Shown here piece by piece: positions 27,117 through 43,038 of a DNA stretch of 64,000 nucleotides (position 1 is the first letter of the stretch; every line of letters begins with the position of its first letter). The position numbers were made by a program, and so were the translations under genes. Below the pieces are notes generated by a model. It worked only from the letters and a program-made list of their open reading frames with translations, ran no database searches and was not told where the DNA came from. This stretch comes from Oscillatoriales cyanobacterium Centralia_MAG_596. GTDB lineage: Bacteria; Cyanobacteriota; Cyanobacteriia; Leptolyngbyales; Leptolyngbyaceae. Location of the stretch: assembly GCA_021323955.1 (NCBI GenBank), contig JAJPKC010000561.1, positions 8,234-72,233 of the forward strand, in the 5' to 3' direction.

Positions 27117-27138
27117 AGGGCATCCCGCCGCTAGAGTA

Positions 27139-27155
27139 TGCCCTGGAGTTCCCCC
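27139..27155 (-). promoter_or_regulatory. putative late promoter (extended J-box-like)
   Basis: GGGGGAACTCCAGGGCA upstream of scaffold ATG. Confidence 0.7.
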
Positions 27156-27218
27156 ACAGCGATTGGTCGATTGACGCTGTTGCTCGTATCACCAATTTGG
27201 TTTGATGGTTGAGCGTCA

Positions 27219-27494
27219 CTAACTCGCACTAATGCCATCGACCCAACCGCGCAACCCGCCAGAATCGCTGACAACGACGCTATTGGGTAGTTGTCCAGAG
27301 CTGAGCGAGTTGGTCGGCACAGCGTTGCCATCAACGTCAACCATCAACACTCCCTGATCAGCGTTAAACCCCAGCGGTGTGCCTGCACGTTGCTGATTGC
27401 GTGCAGTCTGTACTCGCGCCCTGGCCGCCTGCTGTACTGCAAACTGAGCGCGATTATCCGATCGTTGTTGGGCCAGTAATTCTAAAACGTCCAT
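27219..27494 (-). CDS. small tail-tip protein, paralog of the N-terminus of the upstream gene
   Basis: DVLELLAQQRSDNRAQFA vs DVLQLLANQRSLNRANFA. Confidence 0.6.
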   Translation of the reverse strand: MDVLELLAQQRSDNRAQFAVQQAARARVQTARNQQRAGTPLGFNADQGVLMVDVDGNAVPTNSLSSGQLPNSVVVSDSGGLRGWVDGISAS

Positions 27495-27498
27495 AGCT

Positions 27499-28854
27499 TT
27501 AAGGGTGATAAGAACCGGCGTAGATTATTGGCTGTGCACCATTTGGCAAAGGTAGCGGATAGACCGCAATTTCGAGCTGCTCATACAGTGCAAATAGCGT
27601 GCTGTATGTGTTCAAGTGCAGCGTCGTGTTCTCAGTCCAATAGATCGCAGCGTAGAAGGTGCTGATGTCGCTGGGATCAAGCATTGTGAAGTTGCCATTG
27701 AACACGTCAATCAATGCAGGCACAACGAAGAAATCAGCATCCTCATCAACATTATTTTCATCAGGATCAACCCAGATGTATTGAGTGTTTCCAGGTAATG
27801 GATACAGGGTGTTTTGCCCTACACCCCCAGAACCATCAGCATTGATCCGGAGAATGATCTGATCCTGAATCGTGCCCGACACTGATGGCGTATCTAAGCC
27901 CGCGCCGTCGGATGAAACTATCGCAGTCACGATGTAATCGCCATAGTTTCGCGTCGTTACGGGACTACTAAACTCGCTGTCTCCCGGCAGTAAAAGCTGA
28001 TCGTAGCTATATTGAATTGTTGCGCTGGCGTTATTGTTGCTCGTGCCACCGTAGCCATAATCAACGATGTGGATCGTATTGGTGTAGGTGTAGCCGGGGA
28101 TGTCCATCACCTTCTGCACTTGATTGAACAGATAGAACTGCTGTGAGCTGCCGACTACCGTAGTCTCTGTGATCGTTATGGGCAGCGTCGTACCGCTGCT
28201 CTGTGAATTGGTCGAGCTGGGCTGCTCATTCAACGTTGCAGTGAAAAATCCATAGCCCTTAGAGACGCAAAGCACGGGCGTCTCGTGCTTATAATTGCGG
28301 CTACCGTCGCTCGAAATGACTTCAGCGTAGTAATGCCCCGCGATCGCGTAGCACAGGTCAACTTGCCAATCATCGCCGCCCAGGTTCGCTAAGGTTGCAT
28401 TCAGATCAAAGCCAACCTGATTCGCACTCACACCCGTCAGCGTTGCCACCAGCACTGGATCTGACTGCCACCCACCGACATAAATTTCAATCCCGTTGGC
28501 AGTGATGACACTCGCGAGAATCTTGATATTGGCAGGCGTGCTGCTGGTTGTAGTGGTCTTCGTCTGCACCCGCGCGGCTGGTCGCTGGTCAACCCGCACA
28601 GTACCGCCGGATGCATTGACCCTGACCGGTTGGCCCCGTTTCATCAAACCGCTGGTAGTGCTTACTCCCAGCAGTTGTGCGTCACCCCCTGATGGGGCGA
28701 TCGCCATCGTGCCTGAGTCAGCATCGCGCCCATAGTGCTCCCATTGCCGTGGCCTACTCGCTGCCACTTCCGCATGCGCTGACTGACTATCAGCAAAATT
28801 AGCGCGATTCAGCGATCGCTGATTGGCTAACAGTTGCAGCACGTCATCAATCAT
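27499..28854 (-). CDS. tail tip / spike-like protein
   Basis: Beta-rich, Thr/Ser-rich; ATG 28854 overlaps upstream TGA. Confidence 0.6.
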   Translation of the reverse strand: MIDDVLQLLANQRSLNRANFADSQSAHAEVAASRPRQWEHYGRDADSGTMAIAPSGGDAQLLGVSTTSGLMKRGQPVRVNASGGTVRVDQRPAARVQTKTTTTSSTPANIKILASVITANGIEIYVGGWQSDPVLVATLTGVSANQVGFDLNATLANLGGDDWQVDLCYAIAGHYYAEVISSDGSRNYKHETPVLCVSKGYGFFTATLNEQPSSTNSQSSGTTLPITITETTVVGSSQQFYLFNQVQKVMDIPGYTYTNTIHIVDYGYGGTSNNNASATIQYSYDQLLLPGDSEFSSPVTTRNYGDYIVTAIVSSDGAGLDTPSVSGTIQDQIILRINADGSGGVGQNTLYPLPGNTQYIWVDPDENNVDEDADFFVVPALIDVFNGNFTMLDPSDISTFYAAIYWTENTTLHLNTYSTLFALYEQLEIAVYPLPLPNGAQPIIYAGSYHP

Positions 28855-29267
28855 CAGGAATTCGAGAAGTAATAGATCGACTTCCAATCATTAACCGTCG
28901 AGCCGACCGCTACCCAGACCGTACAGCTCCCGCTCGACGTTCCACCGACAAAAAACTGACCGGCAAAGTCGGGTGCAATATTGTCGGCGATTGGATTTGT
29001 ACTGTCACTCCGATAGATGGGCATTCCCCCACCCCCAGTACTACCCCCACCGCTCGTTGTGGGTGTGCCAAGCGCTAACCATTGCCCATCACCGGTGCTC
29101 GGAGTCACGATTAGATTATCGTCGGGCGTCTGCACTGAGCCGCTGCTGAACTGATACCACGCTTTTTTTTCGAGGACTGCAATGCACATTAAATTGCAGC
29201 GGTCTTCTGGTGGGATCGCCTTTAAATCAGCCAAGTAATTGACTCCATAACCTGCGTAAGTCGTCAT
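28854..29267 (-). CDS. tail-associated hypothetical protein
   Basis: Coupled ORF; Gly-rich linker. Confidence 0.55.
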   Translation of the reverse strand: MTTYAGYGVNYLADLKAIPPEDRCNLMCIAVLEKKAWYQFSSGSVQTPDDNLIVTPSTGDGQWLALGTPTTSGGGSTGGGGMPIYRSDSTNPIADNIAPDFAGQFFVGGTSSGSCTVWVAVGSTVNDWKSIYYFSNS

Positions 29268-29974
29268 ACTCCTGGCCCATACACAGTGTTCATTTCGACC
29301 ACGGCAAGTTCATAGACATTCGGCTTGCTGTCCTGGATGATCACCGGATCAGATTCGATTTGCAGCAGCACAACCGAACCGGTCGCATAGCGCATCCTGA
29401 AGTTACCGCTACCCACATTTGAAATTGTCAGAGGCGTGCCATCGACTGTATTTGTCACCTGAAAAGTACCAGCGACATTGTTGACACTGGCTGCATAGTA
29501 GACCGTTGCAGCCGTTAACCCAGTCGGCAATGTGCTTCCTGGCAATGCTTCAAAAATGATGCTGTCATTTGTGGCGAGCAAATTGCTTGCGATTGTGATG
29601 TGGTTCGCGGCGGGGTCTACGTCTGTGGTGGTGAACGTCTCTTGCGCTTTGGCGTGTGCGTCTGCGAGCAGAAACGCGGTTTGAAATTGAATTGAGCCAC
29701 CAGAAGCCGTCCAAGTTGCCTCGATTAACGGCAACTCATGGCGTAAGTTTGTGTTTGAAAAACTGCCATCCTCTGGCCAGACCAGATTCTTACGCTGATA
29801 GCCGTATTGGGTTATTAGCTCTGCGTTCACAAAATCTGATAGAGGGCTAGAACGGCTTAAGCTCGTAGTGTCCGCAAAGCACAGTTGAAATTTGCCTGCT
29901 TGGGGTGGAGTTGCCCCCCGGTACATGACTTTCGCCTTACGGCTGATCCAATCGTTGTGATAGTAGGCAGACAT
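29264..29974 (-). CDS. tail-associated structural protein
   Basis: YQRKNLVW..FSN..ATWTASGGSIQF plus inserted beta module. Confidence 0.6.
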   Translation of the reverse strand: MSAYYHNDWISRKAKVMYRGATPPQAGKFQLCFADTTSLSRSSPLSDFVNAELITQYGYQRKNLVWPEDGSFSNTNLRHELPLIEATWTASGGSIQFQTAFLLADAHAKAQETFTTTDVDPAANHITIASNLLATNDSIIFEALPGSTLPTGLTAATVYYAASVNNVAGTFQVTNTVDGTPLTISNVGSGNFRMRYATGSVVLLQIESDPVIIQDSKPNVYELAVVEMNTVYGPGV

Positions 29975-29995
29975 GGCAGGCAGCTTTAGAAATAC

Positions 29996-30012
29996 TGCCC
30001 TGTCGTTCCCAC
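29996..30012 (-). promoter_or_regulatory. putative late promoter (extended J-box-like)
   Basis: GTGGGAACGACAGGGCA. Confidence 0.7.
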
Positions 30013-30017
30013 CGTTG

Positions 30018-32426
30018 CTAGTAAGGCGCGATGATCTTGCGATACTGTCGATCGCTCATTTGCTGCCATCTTTCGGGCGTTACCTCCGCCCAGGTCAGAG
30101 ACTTCACCATGTCCACAGCGCTGCCACCCGCTACACGCACTGCATGAGTGCTGTGTTGCCCTCTGGCGGCACCTGCGCCCGCCACGCTGATCCGTCTTGG
30201 CTGATAGTCTTTCAGCCCTGAACCGCTTGCTACCTGGATCGATCGCGTCACTGGTGACAAATCATAGTCGCGTCGTGTCAGGCTGATCGCACTGCCTGAA
30301 GACGCTTGCAACGCTTTCCAGTTGATAAAAGGCGGTGAAATCATGTCTGTCGTTGTCGTGACCGCCGGAGTGATCAACGTCCCATGCTCGTCATAGACCG
30401 CTGGTGTTGTGATCGGCGTCTGCACAATTTGCCCTAGCAGAATGCCATCAAAGCTAACAGCACAGCGCTTGCCTGCGATCGCAATAGAGAATCCATCACC
30501 GAGGTAGGCAAAGCGAGCTTGCGGCTCGTTTACGTCGATTCTGGTCAGTGGTTTGTAGCTCCACCATGAATCGCTTAAATCGGTCGTGTAAGACGAGCTC
30601 TTGTAACGTCCCCACAGCACCGCTCCCCAGACTTTTGCCAGTGCCAAACATTGCGCTTCCGCACTATATTTTGCCGCAAGCCCCACACCTGTTGCGCTGA
30701 TGTACTCAAACGTCAGGTCACGCCGCGATTGCCGGTACGGCGAGGCTGCATTCGTTGGCATCTTAAAGACGATTTGCGCGGTCTTCTCGGTTACCGTATA
30801 CGTTGCACTGTAAGTATCCGGTGCCGGTGGGTTTGCCTGCCCTGAGTTTGAAATCGTCGTCGCATCGTCTACCTCATTGAGTTGAGTAACGAGTAACGCA
30901 ATTTTGTTGCGCGGGATGGCTTTGTTCTGCCGGATCAGTTTGGCTGCCTCCGGATTACTGATGCACATCGATTGGTAAATCTGATGCTCTTTTTTCCATT
31001 CACCCGGAGAAGCCTCGTAGTAGTAGTCCACGGTGTACTCACTCGGCGTCGGCTCTTCCGGTGTCCCCAGGCTGGTCTTTGAGCGATAGAGAAAGTCATC
31101 AGGGTCGATCGCACCGATTGGTTGATATTTGAGGGTCGTGATTTTGGGACCGTAGCCTAAAACTACAGTCCACTGAGCCGCATATCCATCTGAGTAGTCA
31201 TCAACAAAGAGTCCCAGGTTGTAGGTGTACTGGGTCTCGGTCTGCTCTGCCAGAATCAGCCGCGTCTTATCGACTTTCATTGTCTTGGGATAGCTAGCGT
31301 AGACTGTTTTCAGTGCTACACCTGCAGGGCGATAAATCTCGATCGTGTGGCGTTGCAACCTGCCTTGATTGCCCTGCTGGCAAAGACTTGCTGCCGAGTT
31401 ACCAATTATTGGGCTGTATTGCTCGTAGTAGTACGTTTCACGGGTCACCGAGCTGAGGATCAGGTCTGTGACTCCAGCGTATTGTTTATCTCCAGCAAAC
31501 ACAATTCCTGCTGGCTCTCTGATCACCGTCAGAATGACGCGCTGCTTGCCGGAACGCTGAAAGTTGTCATCCACGCTTGTCTCACGAATGATCATCTCAC
31601 CCGCAGGGGACGCCGTTGTACCAGCTTTCAAACCGGCCAAAACCAGGGGGCCAAACTGCTGATCGTCTGAGCTGGTGTGATCGTTCGCAGGTTTGACCAC
31701 GGCTGCTTTGCCTTTAATCACCAGCTCGCATGGCGGCGCTTCGCCTGCAACGCGTTCAGTTTGCACGATGCTGCTGCTGTTGATGGTAAAAGCGGCCGCG
31801 CGGTTGCTGGTATCAAGGGCACTTGCCCGCACATTTCCTGCTGTGTCTACCCACAGAAAATAGCCAGCGCTGGCGGCGATCGCTGAGGCCTGGTCGATAT
31901 AGCTCCCGTCTAACAGCTTTGGCGTCGGGATGCTGAGCAAGCCGGGGACAGCATCACCTGCAAAAAGTTGCGGTGCACCGGCTGCTGCCAGCAGATTGCT
32001 GATCACTTCTGTCTTGGCTGAATTGGTGCCCAGACAAATTTTTGACGCATTCATCAACGGTTCCCGCATTCGCAGCAACTCAAGCACATCAGCGACTTGC
32101 AGCGTCAGCTTGCGGGTTTTGAGGTCATACGCTGCCTCTAGAATGTGCAGCGTTCCGCCTCGGGGGGGCAGTCGCAGGCTGCCTGACGAGTCAGCAAGTT
32201 GAATCGTTAGCGAGTTACCCCGACTCCAGCGATCGTTAACGCGATCGTCCAGGCTCTCAAAGCTACCACCTTCTGGATAGCCCAGCACTAATGTCCCTTT
32301 GAAGGTGACCAATCCAGACGCGTTGTCTAGCTTAGTGTCTGAGCCAGTGAAGCTCACCACGGCGTTGTTGCAGTTCAATCCAGCAATGGTGACGCTGTAA
32401 TGGCGAATGCTGAGATTAATCGTCAT
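30018..32426 (-). CDS. tail hub / baseplate-like protein
   Basis: ~800 aa after Dit-like gene; hub-like LQVADVLELL..AASAGYFLWVDTAGNVR; ATG 32426 overlaps upstream TGA. Confidence 0.65.
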   Translation of the reverse strand: MTINLSIRHYSVTIAGLNCNNAVVSFTGSDTKLDNASGLVTFKGTLVLGYPEGGSFESLDDRVNDRWSRGNSLTIQLADSSGSLRLPPRGGTLHILEAAYDLKTRKLTLQVADVLELLRMREPLMNASKICLGTNSAKTEVISNLLAAAGAPQLFAGDAVPGLLSIPTPKLLDGSYIDQASAIAASAGYFLWVDTAGNVRASALDTSNRAAAFTINSSSIVQTERVAGEAPPCELVIKGKAAVVKPANDHTSSDDQQFGPLVLAGLKAGTTASPAGEMIIRETSVDDNFQRSGKQRVILTVIREPAGIVFAGDKQYAGVTDLILSSVTRETYYYEQYSPIIGNSAASLCQQGNQGRLQRHTIEIYRPAGVALKTVYASYPKTMKVDKTRLILAEQTETQYTYNLGLFVDDYSDGYAAQWTVVLGYGPKITTLKYQPIGAIDPDDFLYRSKTSLGTPEEPTPSEYTVDYYYEASPGEWKKEHQIYQSMCISNPEAAKLIRQNKAIPRNKIALLVTQLNEVDDATTISNSGQANPPAPDTYSATYTVTEKTAQIVFKMPTNAASPYRQSRRDLTFEYISATGVGLAAKYSAEAQCLALAKVWGAVLWGRYKSSSYTTDLSDSWWSYKPLTRIDVNEPQARFAYLGDGFSIAIAGKRCAVSFDGILLGQIVQTPITTPAVYDEHGTLITPAVTTTTDMISPPFINWKALQASSGSAISLTRRDYDLSPVTRSIQVASGSGLKDYQPRRISVAGAGAARGQHSTHAVRVAGGSAVDMVKSLTWAEVTPERWQQMSDRQYRKIIAPY

Positions 32427-32914
32427 GACGCTGGCACCGGGTCTAGCTCGCGCAGCACGCACCGGGCGATGTATGGATAGAGCAGATTATTAGAATGCTC
32501 CCAGCGTGGCTCGTACATCCGAGCGTGGAAGAGGGCTGGATATTCGATGCCACCACCGTCTAACGCAACGACCTCACCATCAGGCGCTAATGCTCTGCTG
32601 CGTCCATCCTGGTCTTCAACGTATGCTTCGACGTAATCCGCGACAGTGATGCTAAATGGTTGATCTTGTGCCCGCTTCCGCTCTGATCGCCGATAGATCA
32701 ACCACAGTTGCCGCCATTCCGCTTCACTGAGAAACGCTGCTAGCGTCCAGACGTACTTCGGCTCATAGAGTTGCCCATCAACAGTTGGAGTGCCATTAAG
32801 CGAATACTCTACTTCACCACCCGGCGCAATCACCGTGCGCTCATAACCGTTGAGCACAAACTCTTGTAGTGAAACAGCGAAAGTGTCGATGGAAAGGGCA
32901 ACGGCATTCGGCAT
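32423..32914 (-). CDS. distal tail (Dit/gpM-like) protein
   Basis: EVEYSLNGTPTVDGQLYEPKYVWTL pattern and position. Confidence 0.55.
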   Translation of the reverse strand: MPNAVALSIDTFAVSLQEFVLNGYERTVIAPGGEVEYSLNGTPTVDGQLYEPKYVWTLAAFLSEAEWRQLWLIYRRSERKRAQDQPFSITVADYVEAYVEDQDGRSRALAPDGEVVALDGGGIEYPALFHARMYEPRWEHSNNLLYPYIARCVLRELDPVPAS

Positions 32915-32932
32915 CGTGGGCAGAGATGAGAC

Positions 32933-32949
32933 TGCCCTGGTGTTCCCGC
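32933..32949 (-). promoter_or_regulatory. putative late promoter (extended J-box-like)
   Basis: GCGGGAACACCAGGGCA, identical to 37239-37255. Confidence 0.7.
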
Positions 32950-32958
32950 AAATCCAAA

Positions 32959-33594
32959 CTACTCTGCGATCTTGAATTCAGCCCCCAACACCCACCGCCG
33001 TTCCCCTGGCGGTAACTGCACACGAAACAAGGTGCCAGAATCCACGTCACGTAGAGAAAGACTGCCCTGGCGCTTCGTGCTAACAAACGCCAGTGGACAG
33101 CGTACGGTATTGCCTTCAATGTGTGGCAAAATCAGCAGCACGCCATCGCCAGACCATGCACGGACGCGACCAGGCAGCCGCTTGCCATTGCCTTTATGAG
33201 CACGCAAAGTATCCATAGGTGCCATGCCCACAACCCATCCCGGCATTTTGTTCTCTTTGGTCAGGGCAAAGAACGTATCGCAGGCTGGGGCCGGAATTTT
33301 GATTTTCTGATCTTTGGGCTGGAAGTAGAAGAAATCTGACGCCTTTGCAGGTTCGCCCTTTTTGGGGTCACGGTTGGCGTTGATAAAGCAGCTCGTTAGC
33401 GTGGCAATGCCCAATTCTTGATGGTGCAACGCTTCCAGCTTCAATTTCGCCCCATGCTCAAGTGCCTGAAGGATCAACCAGGTTGGTTGAAACCCAAAGT
33501 TTTCAGCGTCGAATCGTGTGTCGTGTGGCCAGTAACGCTGAATACGCCAAAAAATCCCTTCCCAGTCTGGATCTTCAGGCGCTTGAGCTAGAAG
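32959..33594 (-). CDS. tail assembly chaperone C-terminal extension (gpT-like, -1 frameshift product)
   Basis: -1 frame open from the slippery site (GKLLAQAPEDPDWEGIFWRIQRYWP..) into ORF 32959-33477. Confidence 0.75.
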   Translation of the reverse strand, partial: LLAQAPEDPDWEGIFWRIQRYWPHDTRFDAENFGFQPTWLILQALEHGAKLKLEALHHQELGIATLTSCFINANRDPKKGEPAKASDFFYFQPKDQKIKIPAPACDTFFALTKENKMPGWVVGMAPMDTLRAHKGNGKRLPGRVRAWSGDGVLLILPHIEGNTVRCPLAFVSTKRQGSLSLRDVDSGTLFRVQLPPGERRWVLGAEFKIAE

Positions 33595-34103
33595 TTTCCC
33601 AATTCTTCGTCGGAGGGGTTTTCTGGTGGTGCCGTTTCTTCAGCCCATCCCGTTTCCTCTCTATGGGCAAAGATGACAATTTCTTTGACCAGCGCTGGCG
33701 GAAGTAAATCGGTGTTTAGCGTGTCTTCGATCGTCCAGTCCTCATCCCGCATCACACGAAACCGCAGAATCGCCGTCGCTAATGCTAATGCCTTCTGGTC
33801 ATTAGCTTCATCAACTAAATCCTGGAAGATAATCAGTTCGCCAAGATAGTCACTCAGAGCCGTCATATCATTTTGGATGAGGGCAGAGTAGATGTCACTG
33901 AGCCGTGCTCCTTCTTTAGTTGCAATTTCGGCTGCCAGCTTTATCCCTTCTCTCCGTATATCGATCAAGTTTTGCTGCTTCAAAAATCGACGTTCTACAG
34001 GCGATAGGTCACCTAGTTTAGGGATATTCAAGATTCCAGTCGCTTCGTTGCCGACAGCAACGGTTTCAACAGCTTTAGGTTCAACAACAAATGGAAGTTT
34101 CAT
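33588..34103 (-). CDS. tail assembly chaperone (gpG-like)
   Basis: Follows tail tube; ends EELGNF*; start ATG 34103 (MKLPFVV). Confidence 0.75.
   Translation of the reverse strand: MKLPFVVEPKAVETVAVGNEATGILNIPKLGDLSPVERRFLKQQNLIDIRREGIKLAAEIATKEGARLSDIYSALIQNDMTALSDYLGELIIFQDLVDEANDQKALALATAILRFRVMRDEDWTIEDTLNTDLLPPALVKEIVIFAHREETGWAEETAPPENPSDEELGNF
33594..33600 (-). other. programmed -1 ribosomal frameshift site G GGA AAC
   Basis: X XXY YYZ heptamer in frame, one codon before TAG. Confidence 0.8.
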
Positions 34104-34125
34104 GGCAGTTTTTTGGCTCAACTGA

Positions 34126-34140
34126 CTGTGGAGTTCCCAC
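34126..34140 (-). promoter_or_regulatory. putative late promoter
   Basis: GTGGGAACTCCACAG upstream of chaperone ATG. Confidence 0.6.
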
Positions 34141-34218
34141 CGCATCTCAAGGTAGGAATGACTAAGAGGTCGGGCAGTCTCGCTCAACTACGACTGCTCG
34201 ACTTCCTTCAGTGATTGG

Positions 34219-35136
34219 TTAGGCGTAGTGCCCAATCGTTGGTGTACCGCGGCCTTTGAACGTGCATTTGCCTGTGATGATATTGTCCGAAGGGTTAGTC
34301 TTCGAAAAATCAGTCACGTCGCAAACGCCTTCAATGCGTTCCCCAACGGTGTAACCATCGGGAGCCGGATCAAGCTTTCTCACCCAGCCGCGCACACCTG
34401 CGATCGCATTCGCTGCGGCATATTTCAAGCTGAAATAGCCAGGGTCGCTGGGCAGCACGTTAAACGAATAGCTGACCTGCCAGCTTGCACCAGTGACTTT
34501 CCCGGTGCTGTAAATCAAGCCCTTGCCGTAAATCTGCGATTCGGTGTCCTTGGACTGGATTTGTTCGTCGGATGTCGTCCCACCTTGCAGTAGTTGCAAC
34601 CCAGAGTGCAGGCACACAGAACCAGTTGCGATCGTTTCTGCCAGTGGTTCAACAAACAAGCTGGTATCGCCTGTCTTGGCATCTTTGGTGGAATACGCGA
34701 GCTTAAATGCCGTGGTGAAGTAGTAACCAACCGCACCGCTCTCTAGGGCCGCAGGCAATGGATCGATCGGTACGGTCGTCGCAGCGTTGGCGGCCTCTGC
34801 CGTAGTGTTGACCTGAAAGCCAGCATTAAAGAAGTAGATCGTGGAGTTGTCAGGAATATCGCCTGACAATGCTGATACAGCCAGGCTGGTTGCATTCTCG
34901 GCGGCATTGGCAGAGAGCGTTACCAGCACGGGCACGGCAAACTTGAGTAAGCTACCAGCCGCAACGGGCTTGGTCAAGGCGGTCAGCGCGATCGTTGCAG
35001 TACCGGCATTTGCGGCAGCGCTGGTGGTCATCACGACATCGGGCGGAGCGGTCGGATTGTCGAGCAAGAGTAGCTCACCCGGCATAATGCCAAACAGAAT
35101 TTCGGTTTGTACACCGATGACAAAATTTTGAGACAT
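34219..35136 (-). CDS. major tail tube protein with inserted beta domain
   Basis: C-terminal VTDFSKTNPSDNIITGKCTFKGRGTP; position before chaperone; ATG 35136. Confidence 0.75.
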   Translation of the reverse strand: MSQNFVIGVQTEILFGIMPGELLLLDNPTAPPDVVMTTSAAANAGTATIALTALTKPVAAGSLLKFAVPVLVTLSANAAENATSLAVSALSGDIPDNSTIYFFNAGFQVNTTAEAANAATTVPIDPLPAALESGAVGYYFTTAFKLAYSTKDAKTGDTSLFVEPLAETIATGSVCLHSGLQLLQGGTTSDEQIQSKDTESQIYGKGLIYSTGKVTGASWQVSYSFNVLPSDPGYFSLKYAAANAIAGVRGWVRKLDPAPDGYTVGERIEGVCDVTDFSKTNPSDNIITGKCTFKGRGTPTIGHYA

Positions 35137-35168
35137 GGAAGCGGAATCCCTCGCGAGGGTGGTCGCTT

Positions 35169-35181
35169 GTGGTATTCCCTC
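35169..35181 (-). promoter_or_regulatory. putative late promoter, closest J-box match
   Basis: GAGGGAATACCAC (core GGGAATAC). Confidence 0.6.
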
Positions 35182-35200
35182 GCTCTGCTCTTCCAGGCCT

Positions 35201-35608
35201 TTATTGTTTGGCAAACTCCGTCATGTCAGGAATCTTGACGCTAACCTGTTCGCGGATGTTCTTCTGTTGGTTTGCACCAATGACAATCGATTTTGTATTG
35301 GGGAAGGACAACTCTAACTTGTCGATCGCGGTCTGTAGAGTGTGGCAGCCCTGGTGCTGCACCAGAAAAAGTTGCCATACTCTCTGGCGATGAACACCGC
35401 CATAAACGGCTGGAGAGTTTCGTTCAGGACTACGACGAATAATGATCTCTAGCCCAGTGATGGCGCGATCATTAGGCCGTGTCTCACCCGAATCCTGGAT
35501 GCAGATCGCAGGCGAATCATTGGTCAGCGGGGGCTTCCCAATGGTGTAGGTGCCTAACTCCTCCGCTAAGAGGAGAAGGATGCGATCGCGCAAATCTTCA
35601 GCTTTCAT
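35201..35608 (-). CDS. tail terminator / completion protein
   Basis: Size and position directly upstream of tail tube. Confidence 0.55.
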   Translation of the reverse strand: MKAEDLRDRILLLLAEELGTYTIGKPPLTNDSPAICIQDSGETRPNDRAITGLEIIIRRSPERNSPAVYGGVHRQRVWQLFLVQHQGCHTLQTAIDKLELSFPNTKSIVIGANQQKNIREQVSVKIPDMTEFAKQ

Positions 35609-35877
35609 GGCCCTCTCCTAAGGGTTGGGTCTGATTGATAGGTTTGATAGGTCGCCGCTGGTTTTGGCTTTACGTCTTCCCAGGTATCCAAAAGTAGCTT
35701 CCAGGTTTGTGTGGCTACCAGCATTGCCTGAGCAAACTGGTTAGAGTCTTCGGCATTGTTCCTGATACAGGCTTCTCTAAGTCGTTTTTGAAGGTCGACA
35801 ATGAGCGCTGCTTGCTTGTCGATCGTGCCTTTAATACAGGGTGCTTTATCTTCAATCACAGGTTTATCTTCGGTCAT
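35605..35877 (-). CDS. hypothetical protein
   Basis: Coupled ORF. Confidence 0.5.
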   Translation of the reverse strand: MTEDKPVIEDKAPCIKGTIDKQAALIVDLQKRLREACIRNNAEDSNQFAQAMLVATQTWKLLLDTWEDVKPKPAATYQTYQSDPTLRRGP

Positions 35878-36281
35878 AGTCCTAGCTCCTTCTTCAAGTG
35901 TTCGGCAAAATGCTGAGTCACATTCATGTGCTCCTGAGCCGCTTTATCCCACTGACGACCAGGATAAACCGTCTGATCATCCGTCCAGCCTGTGTAGACT
36001 ACTGCTGCATGGTCACAGTCATATTCGATTGTGGCAACCGTCACGTCACCCTTTTCTTCAATCACCACCGGCTGCTGCGAATCTAATAGTTCTGCCGTGT
36101 CGTTGATGTCCCGTGGGGAATCGACGACTTCCCCGTTACGCCGTTTGGTTTCCTTTCCTGTCCACTGCCACTCAGGGGTGTCCAGTTCTACCTGCAACTG
36201 AGCCGCATACACCTCAGCGGTTTTCGTGAATGCTTTGGTGATGCCAGCGTTGAGCTTGGCACGATCGAAATTAATCCCCAT
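35874..36281 (-). CDS. HK97 gp10-like neck/tail completion protein
   Basis: DSPRDINDTAELLDS..YDCDHAAVVYTG..YPGRQW resembles VDTG.L.S..Y..YA..V..G..PGRP. Confidence 0.65.
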   Translation of the reverse strand: MGINFDRAKLNAGITKAFTKTAEVYAAQLQVELDTPEWQWTGKETKRRNGEVVDSPRDINDTAELLDSQQPVVIEEKGDVTVATIEYDCDHAAVVYTGWTDDQTVYPGRQWDKAAQEHMNVTQHFAEHLKKELGL

Positions 36282-36582
36282 CGACTGGTTCCAGAAGTTG
36301 TTTCACATCGCCAGAGATGGTGAATGAGCCAGTGTAAGAGACGGTTTTAGTCAGCAGGTGCCGATTTTCGCCTTCACCCCCCAGCCGCAGGTTGCCATTC
36401 GCGTCGGTTTCATGGAAATGAATTTTGAGTATCGCCAGTCCATTAGCTGGAATGGCAAGCTCAAGCTCAATGTTGAACGCACGATCGCCAATATCTTGCC
36501 CATCCAGCGTCACGGTGGTACTGCGTGGAGTAGCATTGCCCGTTGTTTTGAGTTCAAAATTCATCGTTGTCTTCTGCCTCAA
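36271..36582 (-). CDS. hypothetical protein
   Basis: Coupled ORF, beta-rich. Confidence 0.55.
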   Translation of the reverse strand: MRQKTTMNFELKTTGNATPRSTTVTLDGQDIGDRAFNIELELAIPANGLAILKIHFHETDANGNLRLGGEGENRHLLTKTVSYTGSFTISGDVKQLLEPVDGD

Positions 36583-36769
36583 TGCCTTTAATTTTGCCCA
36601 ACCGCACCAAACCTATAAAAAGCAAAACCGCCGCACAGGAGAGATTAATGATCGCGTAGGGATTGAGCGGGTCGTGTGCTTTCAGCACATTGGCAATCCA
36701 GCCGCTAAAACTACTGCCAGCCATGACGAAATCTAAGATGGCGATTCGCTGATTTGACCAGTTAAACAT
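36554..36769 (-). CDS. small two-TM membrane protein (holin candidate)
   Basis: Two hydrophobic segments and a charged C-terminus. Confidence 0.45.
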   Translation of the reverse strand: MFNWSNQRIAILDFVMAGSSFSGWIANVLKAHDPLNPYAIINLSCAAVLLFIGLVRLGKIKGIEAEDNDEF

Positions 36770-37220
36770 TTGCCGACTCCTGTGAGTTTGCTAGTTTGAG
36801 CAAGGCACCCGCGATCGCGTTAATCGTCCACTCCATTGCCATACACTCAGTCTGTTCACTTGAGTCTGGTTCAAACGGTGCCATGTGCAGATGCAGCAAC
36901 TCATGGATCAGCGTCTCTTCAAGGTTGTAGGGTCGCATTGGGTTCTGCTTAACAGCATCTTCCGGTGTAACCAGCTTAATGTCTGCCGTTTTCTCGGTTA
37001 TGCGCCAGTGAATACAGCCCTGCGCTTGCGTACTGCTCATATCCATGGCAGGCACAACTTTTACAGTTACATCCCAATCAGCCAGCCTCAGCCGTTGCTG
37101 CCATTCTCGGCATTTCTGCTGCATCTGCTGTTCGAGCGTGAGTTCTGGTGGTGAGCACTTCTGCTGTGTCTGCTGTTCAAGTGCGATGTCCTGGTGGTGC
37201 AATTGTTTGGGTTCAGTCAT
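36762..37220 (-). CDS. zincin-like metallopeptidase
   Basis: EETLIHELLHLH (HExxH) with downstream E. Confidence 0.7.
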   Translation of the reverse strand: MTEPKQLHHQDIALEQQTQQKCSPPELTLEQQMQQKCREWQQRLRLADWDVTVKVVPAMDMSSTQAQGCIHWRITEKTADIKLVTPEDAVKQNPMRPYNLEETLIHELLHLHMAPFEPDSSEQTECMAMEWTINAIAGALLKLANSQESANV

Positions 37221-37238
37221 CGTCTCAGAGCATAATAG

Positions 37239-37255
37239 TGCCCTGGTGTTCCCGC
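37239..37255 (-). promoter_or_regulatory. putative late promoter (extended J-box-like)
   Basis: GCGGGAACACCAGGGCA. Confidence 0.7.
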
Positions 37256-37260
37256 AGCGG

Positions 37261-37884
37261 TTAGTTCAGAGTACGCTTGCTCGACTGTGCCGCACGTTTG
37301 GCAAAGCCCTTAAACTGCTCCACTACTTCCTCTGCCTGTTGATTTGCCTCTGCACATTCCTGCATGATTTGCCGAGCGACTTGCCGTAGGCGATCGATGA
37401 CTTCCTGACGATCAGACAGATGTTCCCGGTTGTACTGCCACCAACGGCGATCGGTCTCCACCAGAAAATCGATCGTGCCTGTTGAGACCAGCAAATCATT
37501 GACCCCTTTGTGAGTCGATGCGGGAAAGGTTTGGAGTAATTCTTCCCGGTACGCCTGGGCGCGATCGTGTGCTTCTTGGGGCGCAATCATCCCTGAAAGG
37601 CAATCAAACGCTTTCTGCATCACTGGGTCTACCCAGGTCAGCAGTACACCGCAAAATTTGTCGATTTCATCGTCTGGTGATGCCTCTACCCATTCCTGTG
37701 GTGGGCGATCACGAATGGCATCCAACACACTCTCATGGGAGTAGCGCACCAGCGCTGTCGTCACCAGCACCATGATGTTTTCGGGCACTTTGGGATATCG
37801 TCGCTTCAGCCCCTCGCAGTAAGTCTCTCCACTCTTGACCGAGTGCAGCCAGATCTGGTGCTGAACGTTAAACGGAATGCTCAT
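37261..37884 (-). CDS. hypothetical protein
   Basis: 207-aa helical ORF. Confidence 0.65.
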   Translation of the reverse strand: MSIPFNVQHQIWLHSVKSGETYCEGLKRRYPKVPENIMVLVTTALVRYSHESVLDAIRDRPPQEWVEASPDDEIDKFCGVLLTWVDPVMQKAFDCLSGMIAPQEAHDRAQAYREELLQTFPASTHKGVNDLLVSTGTIDFLVETDRRWWQYNREHLSDRQEVIDRLRQVARQIMQECAEANQQAEEVVEQFKGFAKRAAQSSKRTLN

Positions 37885-38012
37885 GGCACGTCTTTCTTAA
37901 AGCCCTTCAATGATGGCAGTTTTCGCTTGGGCTGACCCAGCTTCAATTTCTCCAGCCGTCGTGCTTCCTTGCTCCGCCGCGCCGATCGATTCCAGTCCCA
38001 GTTGCCAGACAT

Positions 38013-38858
38013 CTACGTTTTTGCCTTAAAGTCACTGCAGTTTTCCCCATTGCCGTAAGGATGCATACCACAAACCAGCTTGGTGCCGCGGTAGGTATGG
38101 CCGTGCAAGTATTGACATCCATTACAGAGTGCAGGCTGTTTGATAAGTGAGTGAGATTGCGCCTGATTGAATGCATTAAGCACGGCTCGCCCTTGACTGA
38201 ATTCTTCTAGCGCTTCAGCGCGATCGGGTAGCAGCCCAGCACGATCTAACCGTCGATAGTAGGAGTCAGGAGCTTCATGGTTGTACCGGAATGTAGAGAG
38301 CGATTGCCCCCCCTCAATCAGCAGTTCTTCGCGTGTCGCATTGCGCAGATATTGGGCAGTGGATACTGTGCACCTATACCTGACGGCTTCGCCTCGTTGA
38401 GCACTCATTTCAAATGATTCTGGCCGTAGCCGTAGGATCACGTTGAGCGCTAAGTCACCAGCATCTCTGTGATAGCGCCATTCCAAGATGTCGCCAAAAA
38501 TATCTCCTTCCTGGAGCCGTAAAAAAGTCCGGATGGGTGCTCGAAACTCAGCAGCCAAAACAGTGAATCGAATGATGATTGCGTCGTTGTTGAGTGTGAA
38601 ATCTAACAGTGGGAAGGCCAGCCAGTGGGGGCCAAGACGGACTTGGCATAGACCCGGATCGCCCAGGCAGAGTTCCCAGTGTTGTAAATGCAGGAATCTT
38701 GGTGCGGGGATGGATCTGCTTTGTATCGAAGGCTGAGTCCGATCAAAATCAGCCCCCATCCGCGGCTGTATCCTGTTCAGAATCATGCTCTCATAATCGT
38801 GTATGAGCTCTGACTGCCGGCGCAATTCCTCGCCCGATGGCTCTTGAAAATCAGGCAT
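38013..38858 (-). CDS. hypothetical protein with C-terminal Cys/His cluster
   Basis: CNGCQYLHG..VCGMHPYG..CSDF. Confidence 0.6.
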   Translation of the reverse strand: MPDFQEPSGEELRRQSELIHDYESMILNRIQPRMGADFDRTQPSIQSRSIPAPRFLHLQHWELCLGDPGLCQVRLGPHWLAFPLLDFTLNNDAIIIRFTVLAAEFRAPIRTFLRLQEGDIFGDILEWRYHRDAGDLALNVILRLRPESFEMSAQRGEAVRYRCTVSTAQYLRNATREELLIEGGQSLSTFRYNHEAPDSYYRRLDRAGLLPDRAEALEEFSQGRAVLNAFNQAQSHSLIKQPALCNGCQYLHGHTYRGTKLVCGMHPYGNGENCSDFKAKT

Positions 38859-39267
38859 ACTCCGCCCTCGATGTTTGAAACCATCCTACGATTTTAGTCC
38901 CAGCGCTCTCCTCCATCACTGCCCCAATTCCCTCCCTGCCGTAAGGTGGGTTAATCGGAACATTGAGGTAAAAGAAGCCTGGAGTGCCGCTCCAAGTGGC
39001 TACTGCCCAATTTTTGGGCAGAATGCTGAGTGGCAATTTCATCGGCTCCAGACAATAGCCTTCTAGATACAGTGCCGTCTCGTCAATTTCTGGAGCGCGC
39101 TGAATGGTATTGCCATAAGCGGGTACCTTGGCCTCAAGCATGGCGGTGACTCTGATGCTAGTAGTCTCCGCGATCGCATTGCCCACCTCATCAAAAGTAA
39201 TGTCGCCCGTCGGCACCTCAAAAGTGAGTGTGGTGTTGCGAACAAAATCAGGGAATGGGGTTGCCAT
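38851..39267 (-). CDS. head closure / stopper-like protein
   Basis: Size, beta-rich pattern and position. Confidence 0.55.
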   Translation of the reverse strand: MATPFPDFVRNTTLTFEVPTGDITFDEVGNAIAETTSIRVTAMLEAKVPAYGNTIQRAPEIDETALYLEGYCLEPMKLPLSILPKNWAVATWSGTPGFFYLNVPINPPYGREGIGAVMEESAGTKIVGWFQTSRAEYA

Positions 39268-39334
39268 ACAGAAAAGCCCTCTACTCAGAGGGCAGAATAT
39301 CGTTTGAATTTATTGCTCTAGCGTTCCCCGTTCC

Positions 39335-39610
39335 CTACTCAGGGTTGCGGATTTGTGCGATCGCCGCTTCAAACCATTGCAATTGCTCTGGCGATAGGTC
39401 TCGTTGCACAGTGCGGAATGCCCAACGGGCATCCAGGTCAGGGCTAGTAACAGCGATCTGGCGCAAGACCTGGCGCAACAGATCTACGTCTTGCTGGCGA
39501 ATGGCATTGCCCATCAGCAGTGCCAGTTCGCCCAATATTTGGTTAGCTTCGTCCGAGGGTACCATTGCCATAGGTTGAGGGAACTGGGAGTTCCAGATAA
39601 AGTGCTGCAC
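39335..39610 (-). CDS. hypothetical protein
   Basis: Short helical ORF; overlaps upstream gene, start uncertain. Confidence 0.45.
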   Translation of the reverse strand: MQHFIWNSQFPQPMAMVPSDEANQILGELALLMGNAIRQQDVDLLRQVLRQIAVTSPDLDARWAFRTVQRDLSPEQLQWFEAAIAQIRNPE

Positions 39611-39956
39611 AAAGTTCCTGCACCCAAAGCGCTTCGAGCTGGTCCATGCCGTCTGACTTGGCTCCTGGTTGCCACTCTAGTACATCTGCTTTAATCAGTG
39701 CACTACTGGCATCACCCAAGGTGGCCATCCGTTTCGCCCGGTTGTTGTCCAGGTTGTCCAGGATTTCCTGTACCGTAGCGATCGCGTCAGGGGCTTGCAG
39801 CTCCAGACGGCTCATTGATAAGCGGATGATATCCAGATAGGTCTTCTCCGCAGGCACTTTCAGTGCCCGACGAATGCGCTCCAGGTCGGTGGGGATAGAG
39901 GTGGTGTTCCAGGGCATGGATAAGGGTGGGGAGTGGGGAGTGGGGGAACAGTTCAA
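39543..39956 (-). CDS. head-tail adaptor protein
   Basis: LIKADVLEW motif; likely start ATG 39917 (MPWN). Confidence 0.65.
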   Translation of the reverse strand: MNCSPTPHSPPLSMPWNTTSIPTDLERIRRALKVPAEKTYLDIIRLSMSRLELQAPDAIATVQEILDNLDNNRAKRMATLGDASSALIKADVLEWQPGAKSDGMDQLEALWVQELCAALYLELPVPSTYGNGTLGRS

Positions 39957-39971
39957 AACTTAGAACATTTC

Positions 39972-40637
39972 TCACGCGGCTAGAGTTCCCCGGTTGAGGA
40001 TGGTTGGGTTGGGTCGGTTGCTGCGTCGGTAATAGATCTGACATTTGCAGTGCTGCCCACACGCGCAGTTAGTGCCTGGAGGGACAACCTGGCTCGTCGG
40101 TCGCCATTCGCCATTGGTGCTGTGCTCAACACACGATCCGCAATGCCGTGCCTGTGGATCGAGCGATCGCAGCGCTTCATCAAACCCTTCATCCTCCCGG
40201 CTGATTTGCTCTGCCCGGTGAAAGGTAGTGTTAATCGAATCGGCGTAGCTGCCCGCACGTCTTAATGCCTGCTCTCGGGTTAACTTACCTTCGTACAGCG
40301 CCCGTGCAAAGCCGTCCACGTATTGATATTGGCGTCGTAGTTGATATCCGATTGCACCGAAATGCTGTGATTGAGCACGAGCCTGACCACCCGCGCCCAA
40401 AATGCCTATTCGCAAATGGCTATCCCGTAGGCTTTCGCTCATCCGTAGCTGCCATTCTGTCAGCGTGATCTGCTGGTTTGTCATCAAACGAGTATGAGCT
40501 TGCAAACGTACCTTGAGCTGCTGTTGTTCTTGATCTACCAGGTTGCGGATCACTTCTTTGCCCACGAATTTGCCATCGCTGCGGACATACCGACCAGCAC
40601 GGGGATTGTAAGAAATTTCTTCGGTGCTAAACGGCAT
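39972..40637 (-). CDS. minor head morphogenesis protein (MuF / SPP1 gp7-like)
   Basis: RHCGSC..VPPGTNCACGQHCKCQIYY terminal Cys cluster; near portal. Confidence 0.7.
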   Translation of the reverse strand: MPFSTEEISYNPRAGRYVRSDGKFVGKEVIRNLVDQEQQQLKVRLQAHTRLMTNQQITLTEWQLRMSESLRDSHLRIGILGAGGQARAQSQHFGAIGYQLRRQYQYVDGFARALYEGKLTREQALRRAGSYADSINTTFHRAEQISREDEGFDEALRSLDPQARHCGSCVEHSTNGEWRPTSQVVPPGTNCACGQHCKCQIYYRRSNRPNPTILNRGTLAA

Positions 40638-40640
40638 GGT

Positions 40641-41033
40641 TCACTCGCATGGGGGTGGACTTTGGCCTAAACCGCCAGCCTCAATCGCCGGTTTATCGGT
40701 TGGCTGTGCGAAGACGCAACCTCGGAACCCTGGCACCAGCCAGCCTTTGGGATGCGCCTCCGTATCACCAGCGGTTACGCTGCCCGTGACCGCATAAACA
40801 TAATTGGGGCTTTCTAGCGCAATGCCTGCTTGTAGATCGTTAGCATTCGTGGCAAAGGCGTTGTGCTGCAAAAAGTAAAGTAGCTGGGCCTGGTTTGCTG
40901 CTCTGAGAGTGGTATATGCCTCAGCAGTTTTAGCTTTGTTTGCCTGAGTGAGCCACAGTGGGAGCGCGATCGCCGACAGCAACCCAATGATGATGACAAC
41001 GACAAGCAATTCAATCAGCGAAAAGCCTTTCAT
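40641..41033 (-). CDS. type IV pilin (Pilin_GH-like) with prepilin peptidase site
   Basis: MKG|FSLIELLVVVIIIGLLSAIALP..QANKAK..EA..NQAQ..YF..F..SPNYVY matches cyanobacterial PilA-like pilins. Confidence 0.9.
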   Translation of the reverse strand: MKGFSLIELLVVVIIIGLLSAIALPLWLTQANKAKTAEAYTTLRAANQAQLLYFLQHNAFATNANDLQAGIALESPNYVYAVTGSVTAGDTEAHPKGWLVPGFRGCVFAQPTDKPAIEAGGLGQSPPPCE

Positions 41034-41056
41034 GGAGCAGTAGTAGCAACTGCCTC

Positions 41057-41067
41057 AGCATTCCTAC
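41057..41067 (-). promoter_or_regulatory. J-box-like promoter of the pilin gene
   Basis: GTAGGAATGCT right after a terminator, 23 nt upstream of ATG. Confidence 0.55.
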
Positions 41068-41095
41068 AAAAAACCCACCGGGCTGCGCGGTGGGT
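41068..41095 (-). terminator. intrinsic terminator upstream of the pilin gene
   Basis: ACCCACCG-N7-CGGTGGGT then TTTTT on the minus strand. Confidence 0.8.
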
Positions 41096-41138: not shown

Positions 41139-41312
41139 CTAGCGTTCCCTCACCTTTGCCTTGAGATAACGGCGTAAGCGTGGGTTCGCGGTGGTGATTG
41201 CCCGGTCCAGATCAGCCTGAGTGAAGTTAGAGAGCTTCATCAACGTTTCAAGCGCGATTGGCTGTCCTAATGGTTTGACTATTTGCTGACCCGGTTCTGT
41301 GGGTGCGCTCAT
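41139..41312 (-). CDS. 57-aa hypothetical protein (below the ORF-track cutoff)
   Basis: MSAPTEPGQQ..RRYLKAKVRER*; ATGA-coupled to 41309-41488. Confidence 0.5.
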   Translation of the reverse strand: MSAPTEPGQQIVKPLGQPIALETLMKLSNFTQADLDRAITTANPRLRRYLKAKVRER

Positions 41313-41488
41313 TTCTTACCGAAAATTGTTTTGAAGGCAGAGAGGATGGTAGAGAGCAGCGAAAATCCAGCCGCTACTTTGCTGGTTGTAGCAGCAGCTT
41401 TAGCGCCGACTACACCGCTTTCCGCCACTCCTTCCGTCGCTTGTGAGGCCAGTTCAGCAGCGCTTGCTGCTTTGTCTAAGTTGTCCAT
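41309..41488 (-). CDS. 59-aa Ala-rich peptide with amphipathic C-terminal helix
   Basis: MDNLDKAASAAELASQ..GFSLLSTILSAFKTIFGKK*. Confidence 0.55.
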   Translation of the reverse strand: MDNLDKAASAAELASQATEGVAESGVVGAKAAATTSKVAAGFSLLSTILSAFKTIFGKK

Positions 41489-41535
41489 CGATTTTAGTTC
41501 CTAACGAATTGGCTGTACAGTCCGCTGTGGTATTC

Positions 41536-43038
41536 CTACGCGGCAACGGGCAACGTTTGAACGGCATGTCGTGCTGCTTCGGCTGCGATCGCGTCGGGTG
41601 TAGGCAACACGGTCTGGTTCTGGGCCTCAAGATCACCAATTTGCCGTAACTCTTCCTTGATATCCGTGTCTGGTGGCAGCCATTTCCGCTCTTGCAGCAT
41701 TTGTAACCCGAGCTGGTTGCTAATCTTGACCCCCATCGCATCCAAAATGGTCTGTACTTCCTGGGGACTCGCAGGCGTTTGCAGAATAGACTCGTTGACA
41801 GTGATCGTGCCGCCCTGGTCTTCTCCGGTGTACTGCACCCAGAGCGCAAAAAGTCGCTGCACAGTGGATTCCTTCCGACGTGCCATGTTTTTCAGGCTGC
41901 ACTGGGTTTGGGCAGTGTCCATCACCACTTCCGTTGCCGTTTTTGCCGCTTCCCCGCCAGTCAAGAAGGCTAGGGACATCCGATCCATGGAGCGTTCCAG
42001 CTTTTCAATATCGGTTTGGGTGGCATTAATGGCATTGCCCGTTGGCTCCGCAAAGAAAAAGTCCCCGTCTGCGGGGATGTCTACAACAGAGTTGGGACCG
42101 ATGATCAGCTTGACCACGCCTTTCAGCAGATCAGCGAGGTTTTTGATCAATCCTTTACGCACGGGCACAGGTAGATTGCATTTATGAATCACCTCATTGA
42201 GGCTCGATCGTTTCTGATAATGCTCAATATTCAACTGAGCCAGATTGAGAAACGGAGGCTGACTTTCAAACCATTTGCTATCGCTAACCGAGTACCAGAC
42301 AAACGGCACAACTTCTAAACCTGTTGCGCCGGATAGCTCCGGTACTAAAACCTTCTGATATTTGCCGCCCTGGATCTGTACCAGTTCATAAACATCAAAT
42401 CTGCCAGGGGTTAGCACCCGATAGTAAGTTTTGGTTTCGACGCCATAATCATCTACTGCTACCAGGCGGCTTTCCTGAATTGTTAAGCGTTGAATGATCG
42501 GCTTACCTTGCTCATAGATAATGCTCCAGTTAAGGATGTTGCGTCGATCGACGGCAACGAGGTACGGTCGTAGCGCATAGTTTTGCTCGTCAGCCGCACT
42601 TTGGATCAGTGGGTTGCCATTTTCATCGGTGGGTTGTGGCGGATGCTCCACCAGAATGCCCATCCCGCCGTCCCGCAGTACTGTCTCATCCTGGTCTGTC
42701 AGAAATGATTCAATGCTGCTGCCTTGCAGGTCGATGTCGTCGCGTGCAGCGGCGATCGACGGTGCCACATCGTCAGATAGAACAAACTCAGATAACAGTC
42801 CGGCGTGACCCTTCAGCGCTGGCTTAAAGCGCGAGTCGAACTGTGTCCGGGCAAGACGGTTTTTGTACGCAAGCGGTGGTTCTTCCTCTTCTTTAGAGAG
42901 GTAATCGCCTTTGCAGCCCTTTAGCTCCTGCCACACATCCCAAACGATTTGCAGTTCGTTTGCCGCGTCGAGATACGTGGGGTGCAGGAAAGAAGGCAGC
43001 GATGGATCTTTGGTGAGTGCGGGGGAAGAGGGATTCAT
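41536..43038 (-). CDS. portal protein (DUF4055-type)
   Basis: YLSKEEEEPPLAYKNRLART..RRNILNW..PPFLNLAQLNIEHYQKRS..AKTATE. Confidence 0.9.
   Translation of the reverse strand: MNPSSPALTKDPSLPSFLHPTYLDAANELQIVWDVWQELKGCKGDYLSKEEEEPPLAYKNRLARTQFDSRFKPALKGHAGLLSEFVLSDDVAPSIAAARDDIDLQGSSIESFLTDQDETVLRDGGMGILVEHPPQPTDENGNPLIQSAADEQNYALRPYLVAVDRRNILNWSIIYEQGKPIIQRLTIQESRLVAVDDYGVETKTYYRVLTPGRFDVYELVQIQGGKYQKVLVPELSGATGLEVVPFVWYSVSDSKWFESQPPFLNLAQLNIEHYQKRSSLNEVIHKCNLPVPVRKGLIKNLADLLKGVVKLIIGPNSVVDIPADGDFFFAEPTGNAINATQTDIEKLERSMDRMSLAFLTGGEAAKTATEVVMDTAQTQCSLKNMARRKESTVQRLFALWVQYTGEDQGGTITVNESILQTPASPQEVQTILDAMGVKISNQLGLQMLQERKWLPPDTDIKEELRQIGDLEAQNQTVLPTPDAIAAEAARHAVQTLPVAA

Follow-up and report, generated by a model that had tools for sequence, protein, structure and literature searches.

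What does a type IV pilin gene do among the head genes of a temperate cyanophage? The question is raised by an open reading frame (ORF) in a 64,000-nucleotide stretch of DNA (hereafter the window), taken from the 73-kb contig C32. This contig was binned with a cyanobacterial metagenome-assembled genome (MAG) of 6.96 Mb that is 91.7% complete. C32 belongs to a temperate tailed phage, encoding an integrase, a replication protein, ParA, a LexA-like repressor and a tape-measure gene (3156 aa), together with structural genes for a DUF4055 portal, a scaffold, a major head protein and decoration proteins. Its GC content is 0.522, against 0.528 for the genome. We recognised no host flank and no terminal overlap on C32, and its link to the host is that of metagenomic binning alone. 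The PHROG scan of the ORFs, those of 634 and 462 aa included, revealed no large terminase subunit; this gene is either highly divergent or located outside the contig. Outside the window, C32 also encodes a radical-SAM protein (C32:4552-5235), which we take to be QueE-like, and a protein whose match to ParB_N stays under the cut-off (C32:3165-4046; 20.2 bits against 26.3), and these two genes may hint at a DNA-modification module.

The gene in question, an intact 130-codon ORF on the minus strand (40641-41033), encodes a genuine type IV pilin carried by the phage. Its translation begins MKGFSLIELLVVVIIIGLLSAIALP (MKG|FSLIELLVVV), with a class III signal peptide (MKG|F) whose prepilin motif is complete (Gly at -1, a hydrophobic residue at +1 and Glu at +5), and the protein further contains Pro at +22 and two cysteines, Cys106 and Cys129. 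Since an in-frame stop codon lies 27 nt 5' of the ATG, the leader truly consists of three residues (Met-Lys-Gly). In every match to a PDB pilin sequence, residue 1 of the mature chain aligns with residue 4 of the query, which is consistent with cleavage after Gly3. The protein matches Pfam Pilin_GH (PF16734; E 2e-11, 44.8 bits against a gathering cut-off of 28.9, and 44.5 bits in the whole-genome scan), Pfam N_methyl (PF07963; 25.7 bits, cut-off 21.2), NCBIfam TIGR02532 (29.5 bits, cut-off 16.3), and PHROGs 27437 and 3433, the latter being annotated as 'pilin' in the moron category. Its similarity to NCBIfam GspG is weak and well under the cut-off. The first-pass annotation, made from the letters of the DNA, had described an intact Pilin_GH-like protein with a minimal leader (MKG|FSLIE), and the ORF, the upstream stop and the Pfam, NCBIfam and PHROG matches bear this description out. 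An AlphaFold2 model built with 40 homologues is confident (pLDDT 85.6) and places a helix (residues 6-57) on a four-stranded sheet (78-84, 88-95, 103-110 and 116-124). When the model was compared with the PDB using Foldseek, the top match was PilA4 of Thermus thermophilus (6xxd, TM 0.61), followed by gonococcal PilE (1ay2/5vxx), and full-length major pilins were the sole significant fold matches. The same search of the BFVD viral structures returned no match at E <= 0.001, and no PADLOC defence-family model matched the pilin or its neighbouring genes.

The gene order on the minus strand is the portal, a 59-aa gene, a 57-aa gene, a hairpin with a T-run, 33 nt, the pilin, 3 nt and a 221-aa gene. 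The portal protein (DUF4055, PHROG 145; 41536-43038) was assigned by Pfam and PHROG, and it is followed by the ORFs of the 59-aa gene (41309-41488) and the 57-aa gene (41139-41312), the second of which ends right before the hairpin. The hairpin (41067-41095, minus strand), found by scanning, is terminator-like, with a stem of 8 bp, six of them G-C, followed by TTTTTT, and a folding energy of -14.8 kcal/mol. Read along the coding strand, it precedes the pilin instead of following it, and no terminator is found downstream of the pilin, whose stop codon is separated from the ATG of the 221-aa gene by 3 nt. A consensus promoter scan of the 33-nt gap between the hairpin and the pilin ATG gave no sigma-70-like match. 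Near the locus the scan gave a single sigma-70-like match, TGTACA-17-TAAAAT (41491-41519, minus strand), which is located 5' of the 59-aa gene rather than of the pilin, and such matches are not above chance (2 sites against 5.0 expected in the region). The 221-aa gene (39972-40637, minus strand) encodes a protein with conserved cysteines that belongs to PHROG 24776 (function unknown) and is homologous to gp013 of phage S-CBS4, which directly follows the portal there. This protein matches no Pfam family at E <= 0.01, nor at E <= 1, and none of nine homologues matches Pfam Phage_Mu_F. We therefore reject the earlier label 'MuF-like' for this neighbour, while the rest of the described position, after a DUF4055 portal and two small genes, is correct.

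The strongest evidence on how the pilin came to this site is from a complete sister phage in IMG/VR, IMGVR_UViG_3300034134_000022 (89,480 bp, with direct terminal repeats), whose portal and 221-aa gene are 82% and 78% identical to those in the window. The sister phage keeps the order of portal, 59-aa gene, 57-aa gene, hairpin and 221-aa gene, and its homologous hairpin with a T-run (L016, 857-894) ends 10 nt before the 221-aa gene. The pilin is absent from this site, and no Pilin_GH match was found anywhere in the 89-kb genome even at E <= 1. As the same layout occurs without the pilin, the difference amounts to a gain of ~410 nt, essentially the ORF alone. The pilin thus entered the phage as an ORF-sized insertion between the ancestral hairpin and the 221-aa gene, and it now sits in the short leader of the latter. 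The idea that the gene was inserted among the head genes is thereby established by presence and absence at the same site. A synteny comparison, of the kind that had been suggested as a check, bears out the insertion: no pilin is seen in the sister phage, in S-CBS4 or in ten prophages (five cyanobacterial, and five from Nostoc/Desmonostoc that were retrieved with a three-sequence alignment and searched within 4 kb), where the pilin motif is absent within 1.5-4 kb of the 221-aa homologue. Among the relatives of this phage, the pilin is unique to that of C32. On a larger scale, ~13 kb of the window (27100-41000, minus strand), from the portal region to the scaffold and major head genes, consists of genes with no PHROG match or with PHROGs of function unknown, including ORFs of 814 and 462 aa. 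As S-CBS4 carries glycosyltransferases and other cargo at the equivalent place, this stretch looks like a plastic cargo region of the phage group.

The same comparison bears on how the gene may be expressed. The first-pass annotation had seen a moron-like unit that had its own promoter and was insulated by a terminator (41068-95). The hairpin is real, but it is upstream and ancestral, being also present in the pilin-less sister phage; only 3 nt separate the pilin from the next gene; and no promoter was detected in the 33 nt before the ATG. An autonomous moron, bringing a promoter and a terminator of its own, is therefore not supported. A 'J-box-like' 11-mer that had been pointed out at 41057-67 is not conserved in the sister phage either. 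Since the hairpin ends only 10 nt before an ATG in the sister phage, it is probably an attenuator or an RNA-stability element within a late operon, not a full stop. With no promoter match and the hairpin directly 5' of the gene, expression of the pilin in the lysogen is doubtful, and it may be restricted to late lytic growth.

To place the protein among known pilins, we searched 5.8 billion protein clusters and ran phmmer exhaustively on 1.84 billion representatives. All significant matches are type IV pilins of the cyanobacterial PilA1-like radiation, and in the phmmer search E <= 1e-30 was reached only by the query itself and a 132-aa protein, P0002, its closest relative (60% identical). A further full-length short relative, P0127 (136 aa), is 37% identical. 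A tblastn search of 50,697 GenBank phage records with the pilin gave no match at E <= 1e-3, and a megablast search with the 10-kb region likewise gave none. In the tree the window pilin groups with P0002 and P0127 (support 99/91, in 100% of the bootstrap trees). This clade is nested in the PilA1-like radiation, where the MAG copies are not its sisters, and the window pilin stands on a long stem branch. The leaders of the window pilin, P0002 and P0127 have 3, 3 and 8 residues, respectively, whereas all 38 cellular sequences in the alignment have leaders of ~20-24 residues. In all three proteins the first cysteine has moved to an 'RGCV' motif and the C-terminal GQS..P.C is retained, with both C106 and C129 kept in P0002 and P0127; the 'LCE' cysteine of the cellular sequences is missing from the window pilin. 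Two members of the clade are clearly phage-borne. The gene for P0127 (CP170648.1, GCA_042919575.1; 8001-8411 of the locus) lies in a prophage of a complete 6.3-Mb chromosome, where it shares 8 nt with the end of a gene for a tape-measure/Peptidase_M23 protein (1313 aa) that is apparently split by an IS21-type insertion. P0002 is found on a short contig (2.3 kb) with phage-like neighbours, one encoding an HU-like protein of PHROG 379 and the other an HTH protein that weakly resembles small terminase subunits. Judged from these sequences, the clade appears to be a small pilin lineage that has so far been found mainly in phages. When the window pilin is compared with P0002, pS is 0.825, so that synonymous sites are saturated, against a pN of 0.284, which indicates long-term purifying selection.

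The MAG itself encodes the pilus machinery that such a protein could use: one PilD (Peptidase_A24, C166), nine matches to T2SSE-family ATPases and two secretins, whereas C32 carries no PilD, assembly ATPase or secretin. Its pilins comprise a canonical PilA1 of 179 aa (on C406; leader MKSDFKAKFLQHLVEKKQDKG|F), another protein of the major type and three minor pilins. A prophage origin of this PilA1 was considered and rejected, since its gene is flanked by dtd and other housekeeping-like genes and is thus chromosomal. Three further MAG proteins, C306:1390-2496 (368 aa), C230:15965-16591 (208 aa) and C96:1138-1965 (275 aa), have a Pilin_GH domain at the C-terminus and no prepilin motif, which suggests that the pilin head domain has been reused in non-pilins.

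The phage pilin shares with cyanobacterial PilA1, for example that of C406, the Pfam family PF16734, a near-identical assembly helix with E5 and P22, and a C-terminal cysteine. The N-terminal helices of the phage pilin and MAG PilA1 are identical at 19 of 22 and 26 of 32 positions, but the similarity is limited to the N-terminal two-thirds of the phage protein, the best local alignment being 52% identical over 84 aa; for the other major-type pilin of the MAG the value is 48% over 94 aa, and for the MAG pilins as a whole it is 45-54% in partial alignments of 82-104 aa. Unlike PilA1, the phage pilin lacks the conserved leader of 20-24 residues (MK.E.KAKFLQHL...), has its first cysteine in 'RGCV' instead of 'LCE', and is smaller, with a mature chain of 127 aa against ~150-160 aa. 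It thus has neither the long leader nor the full-size head nor the 'LCE' cysteine that define a PilA1 orthologue. Given this level of identity, and because the tree does not place the phage pilin as sister to the MAG copies, we reject a recent capture from the binned host; the phylogeny against host PilA proposed earlier in fact nests the phage protein elsewhere in the PilA1-like radiation. Two further metagenomic copies of the pilin, in JGI 3300027965 and SRR5579883, share 100% DNA identity over a stretch of 1.6 kb and must be from the same population, and we rejected them as independent evidence. The suspicion that the gene might occur in this genome only, as a recent passive capture, is therefore right in that no relative of this phage carries it, and wrong in that its lineage is old, associated with phages and kept under purifying selection.

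Pilins are also present on other viral contigs. A scan of IMG/VR with the single pilin sequence found no relative, while a scan with the pilin alignment found 87 viral contigs with pilin-like genes, the best of which are full cyanobacterial-type pilins. At least six other cyanobacterial-type pilins occur on IMG/VR viral contigs, and three of them, all PilA1-like, lie beside tail-fibre or virion-structural genes: at 4812-5432 of L033 (3300035002_000022), where the gene overlaps the end of a 1237-aa fibre-like ORF, at 4917-5483 of L036 (3300034630_000009) and at 4977-5483 of L039 (3300015208_000001). The pilins of L033 and L036, both classed as proviruses, are 74% identical to the MAG PilA1 and have non-canonical leaders. 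As the viral pilins fall in at least three separate places in the tree, they point to repeated captures. On two unrelated contigs of this set, small homologous membrane proteins of 120 aa (L030, 5468-5830) and 96 aa (L035, 5497-5787) are encoded directly 3' of the viral pilin with overlapping stop and start codons. They end in ...GNILTSGRRID and ...GSALSGGRKLE, respectively, and may represent a conserved pilin partner.

Phage-encoded pilus subunits have precedents in other hosts. P-FimU is encoded within the tail cluster of F10-like Pseudomonas prophages and blocks phages that bind the pilus tip (Sztanko et al. 2024, 10.1101/2024.03.29.587342); the same study describes P-PilA of Xylella prophages, ~50% identical to host PilA, and truncated PilA-like genes in lytic Pseudomonas phages. 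Like P-FimU and P-PilA, the window pilin is a phage homologue of a host pilus subunit, encoded inside a morphogenetic cluster and relying on host machinery, and its 52% identity to the MAG PilA1 over the N-terminal 84 residues is similar to that of Xylella P-PilA. It differs from both in the host phylum, in its pilin family (cyanobacterial Pilin_GH/PilA1-like), in its three-residue leader and in its reduced head domain, and from the minor pilin FimU in resembling a major pilin. In haloarchaea, the pilins PilA1-2 of the SNJ2 provirus of Natrinema sp. J7 hijack host PilB and PilC, and provirus relatives of SNJ2 repeatedly carry pilins (Xiang et al. 2025, PMC12426801). SNJ2 is thus another temperate virus that encodes type IV pilins, although its pilins are archaeal and the virus is an enveloped pleolipovirus. 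Tip of D3112, Aqs1 and PfsE, cited in the same paper, block type IV pili as small inhibitors of PilB or PilC (PMC12426801). Their outcome, a pilus unusable for superinfecting phages, is the same as that proposed below, but the phage pilin would reach it as a mimic of a pilus subunit.

Our preferred reading, to which we give slightly less than even odds, is that the phage pilin is functional and acts on the host pilus, the most plausible target, leading to the exclusion of superinfecting phages that bind pili. The pilin would be transcribed with the downstream head-region genes, either by a polymerase reading through the hairpin or from a promoter that escaped the scan. The protein would then enter the inner membrane, where host PilD would cleave it after Gly3, and pass into the host pilus machinery, an ability suggested by the 19 of 22 helix positions shared with PilA1. 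The very short leader, and the absence of the conserved 20-24 residues, count against taking processing by PilD as certain. Once in the machinery, the phage pilin would either co-polymerise with PilA1, altering the pilus surface, or jam assembly; either way, the pilus would be lost as a landing site for pilus-binding cyanophages, sister virions included. Cyanophages do bind along the type IV pili of Synechococcus (10.1101/2025.09.20.677514), and the expected outcome, superinfection exclusion, is drawn by analogy with P-FimU of the Pseudomonas prophages.

The main rival to phage exclusion would be a host-benefit role of the SNJ2 kind, in which a pilus made of, or dominated by, the phage pilin would bring new properties in motility, flocculation, biofilm formation or DNA uptake, so that exclusion would not be the selected function. 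Such lysogenic conversion would suit a temperate phage with an integrase, ParA and a LexA-like repressor, and the modelled protein has a complete, compact major-pilin fold like that of the filament-forming PilA4 of Thermus; the SNJ2 pilins, which make up the main surface filament, set a precedent (PMC12426801). We nevertheless consider it unlikely, as the gene shares the strand of the structural genes and is preceded by a hairpin but by no detected promoter, which argues against steady expression from the prophage, and as the lineage is found in head and tail modules, as is P-FimU. A role away from the pilus, as a pilin-like membrane protein such as a pseudopilin for secretion or release, or as a factor in virion assembly or envelope passage, would fit the location among head genes here and at the end of the tape-measure gene in the case of P0127, and could draw on the faint resemblance to GspG, far under the cut-off as it is. 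It is improbable, given that the significant matches are all to PilA1-like type IV pilins and the fold matches are to pilus subunits; moreover, we know of no PilD-processed pilin in the virion of a tailed phage. Least probable of all is that the gene is passive cargo, a recently captured host gene with no function in the phage, a view that its sole occurrence among the relatives of this phage and the DNA identity of the three metagenomic copies would permit, but that is opposed by its distance from the MAG pilins, by nearest relatives that are prophage-borne (P0127) or have phage-like neighbours (P0002), by the retention of the motif, the cysteines and GQS..P.C while synonymous sites are saturated, and by a base composition that matches the adjacent phage genes.

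A bolder extension of superinfection exclusion, which we regard as doubtful, is that the three-pilin clade represents an ancient, dedicated cyanophage lineage of 'minimal' pilins (3-8 leader residues, a reduced head domain and a disulfide in a new place) that has moved between the head and tail modules of unrelated phages. Such pilins would be optimised for taking over the pilus, bypassing control through the long leader and re-coating the pilus or shutting it down. If this were true, then together with the independent captures of PilA1 beside tail-fibre genes, pilus remodelling would be a common and so far undescribed battleground between cyanophages.

Our literature searches found no report of a pilin encoded by a cyanophage, in line with the first-pass annotation, which knew of none; phage pilins as such are already known from prophages of Pseudomonas and Xylella as well as from a haloarchaeal virus. 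What is new here is therefore not a phage-encoded pilus subunit but a small, mainly phage-borne pilin lineage and the recurrent capture of pilins by cyanophages. Should superinfection exclusion prove true, a mechanism so far demonstrated only in Pseudomonas would extend to another phylum and another pilin family, and the pilin-less sister phage offers a natural comparison. Cyanobacteria use type IV pili to move, to flocculate, to stay buoyant and to take up DNA. Phages that re-coated these pili or shut them down would affect superinfection and host range, and might also alter how infected cells or lysogens behave in mats and blooms.
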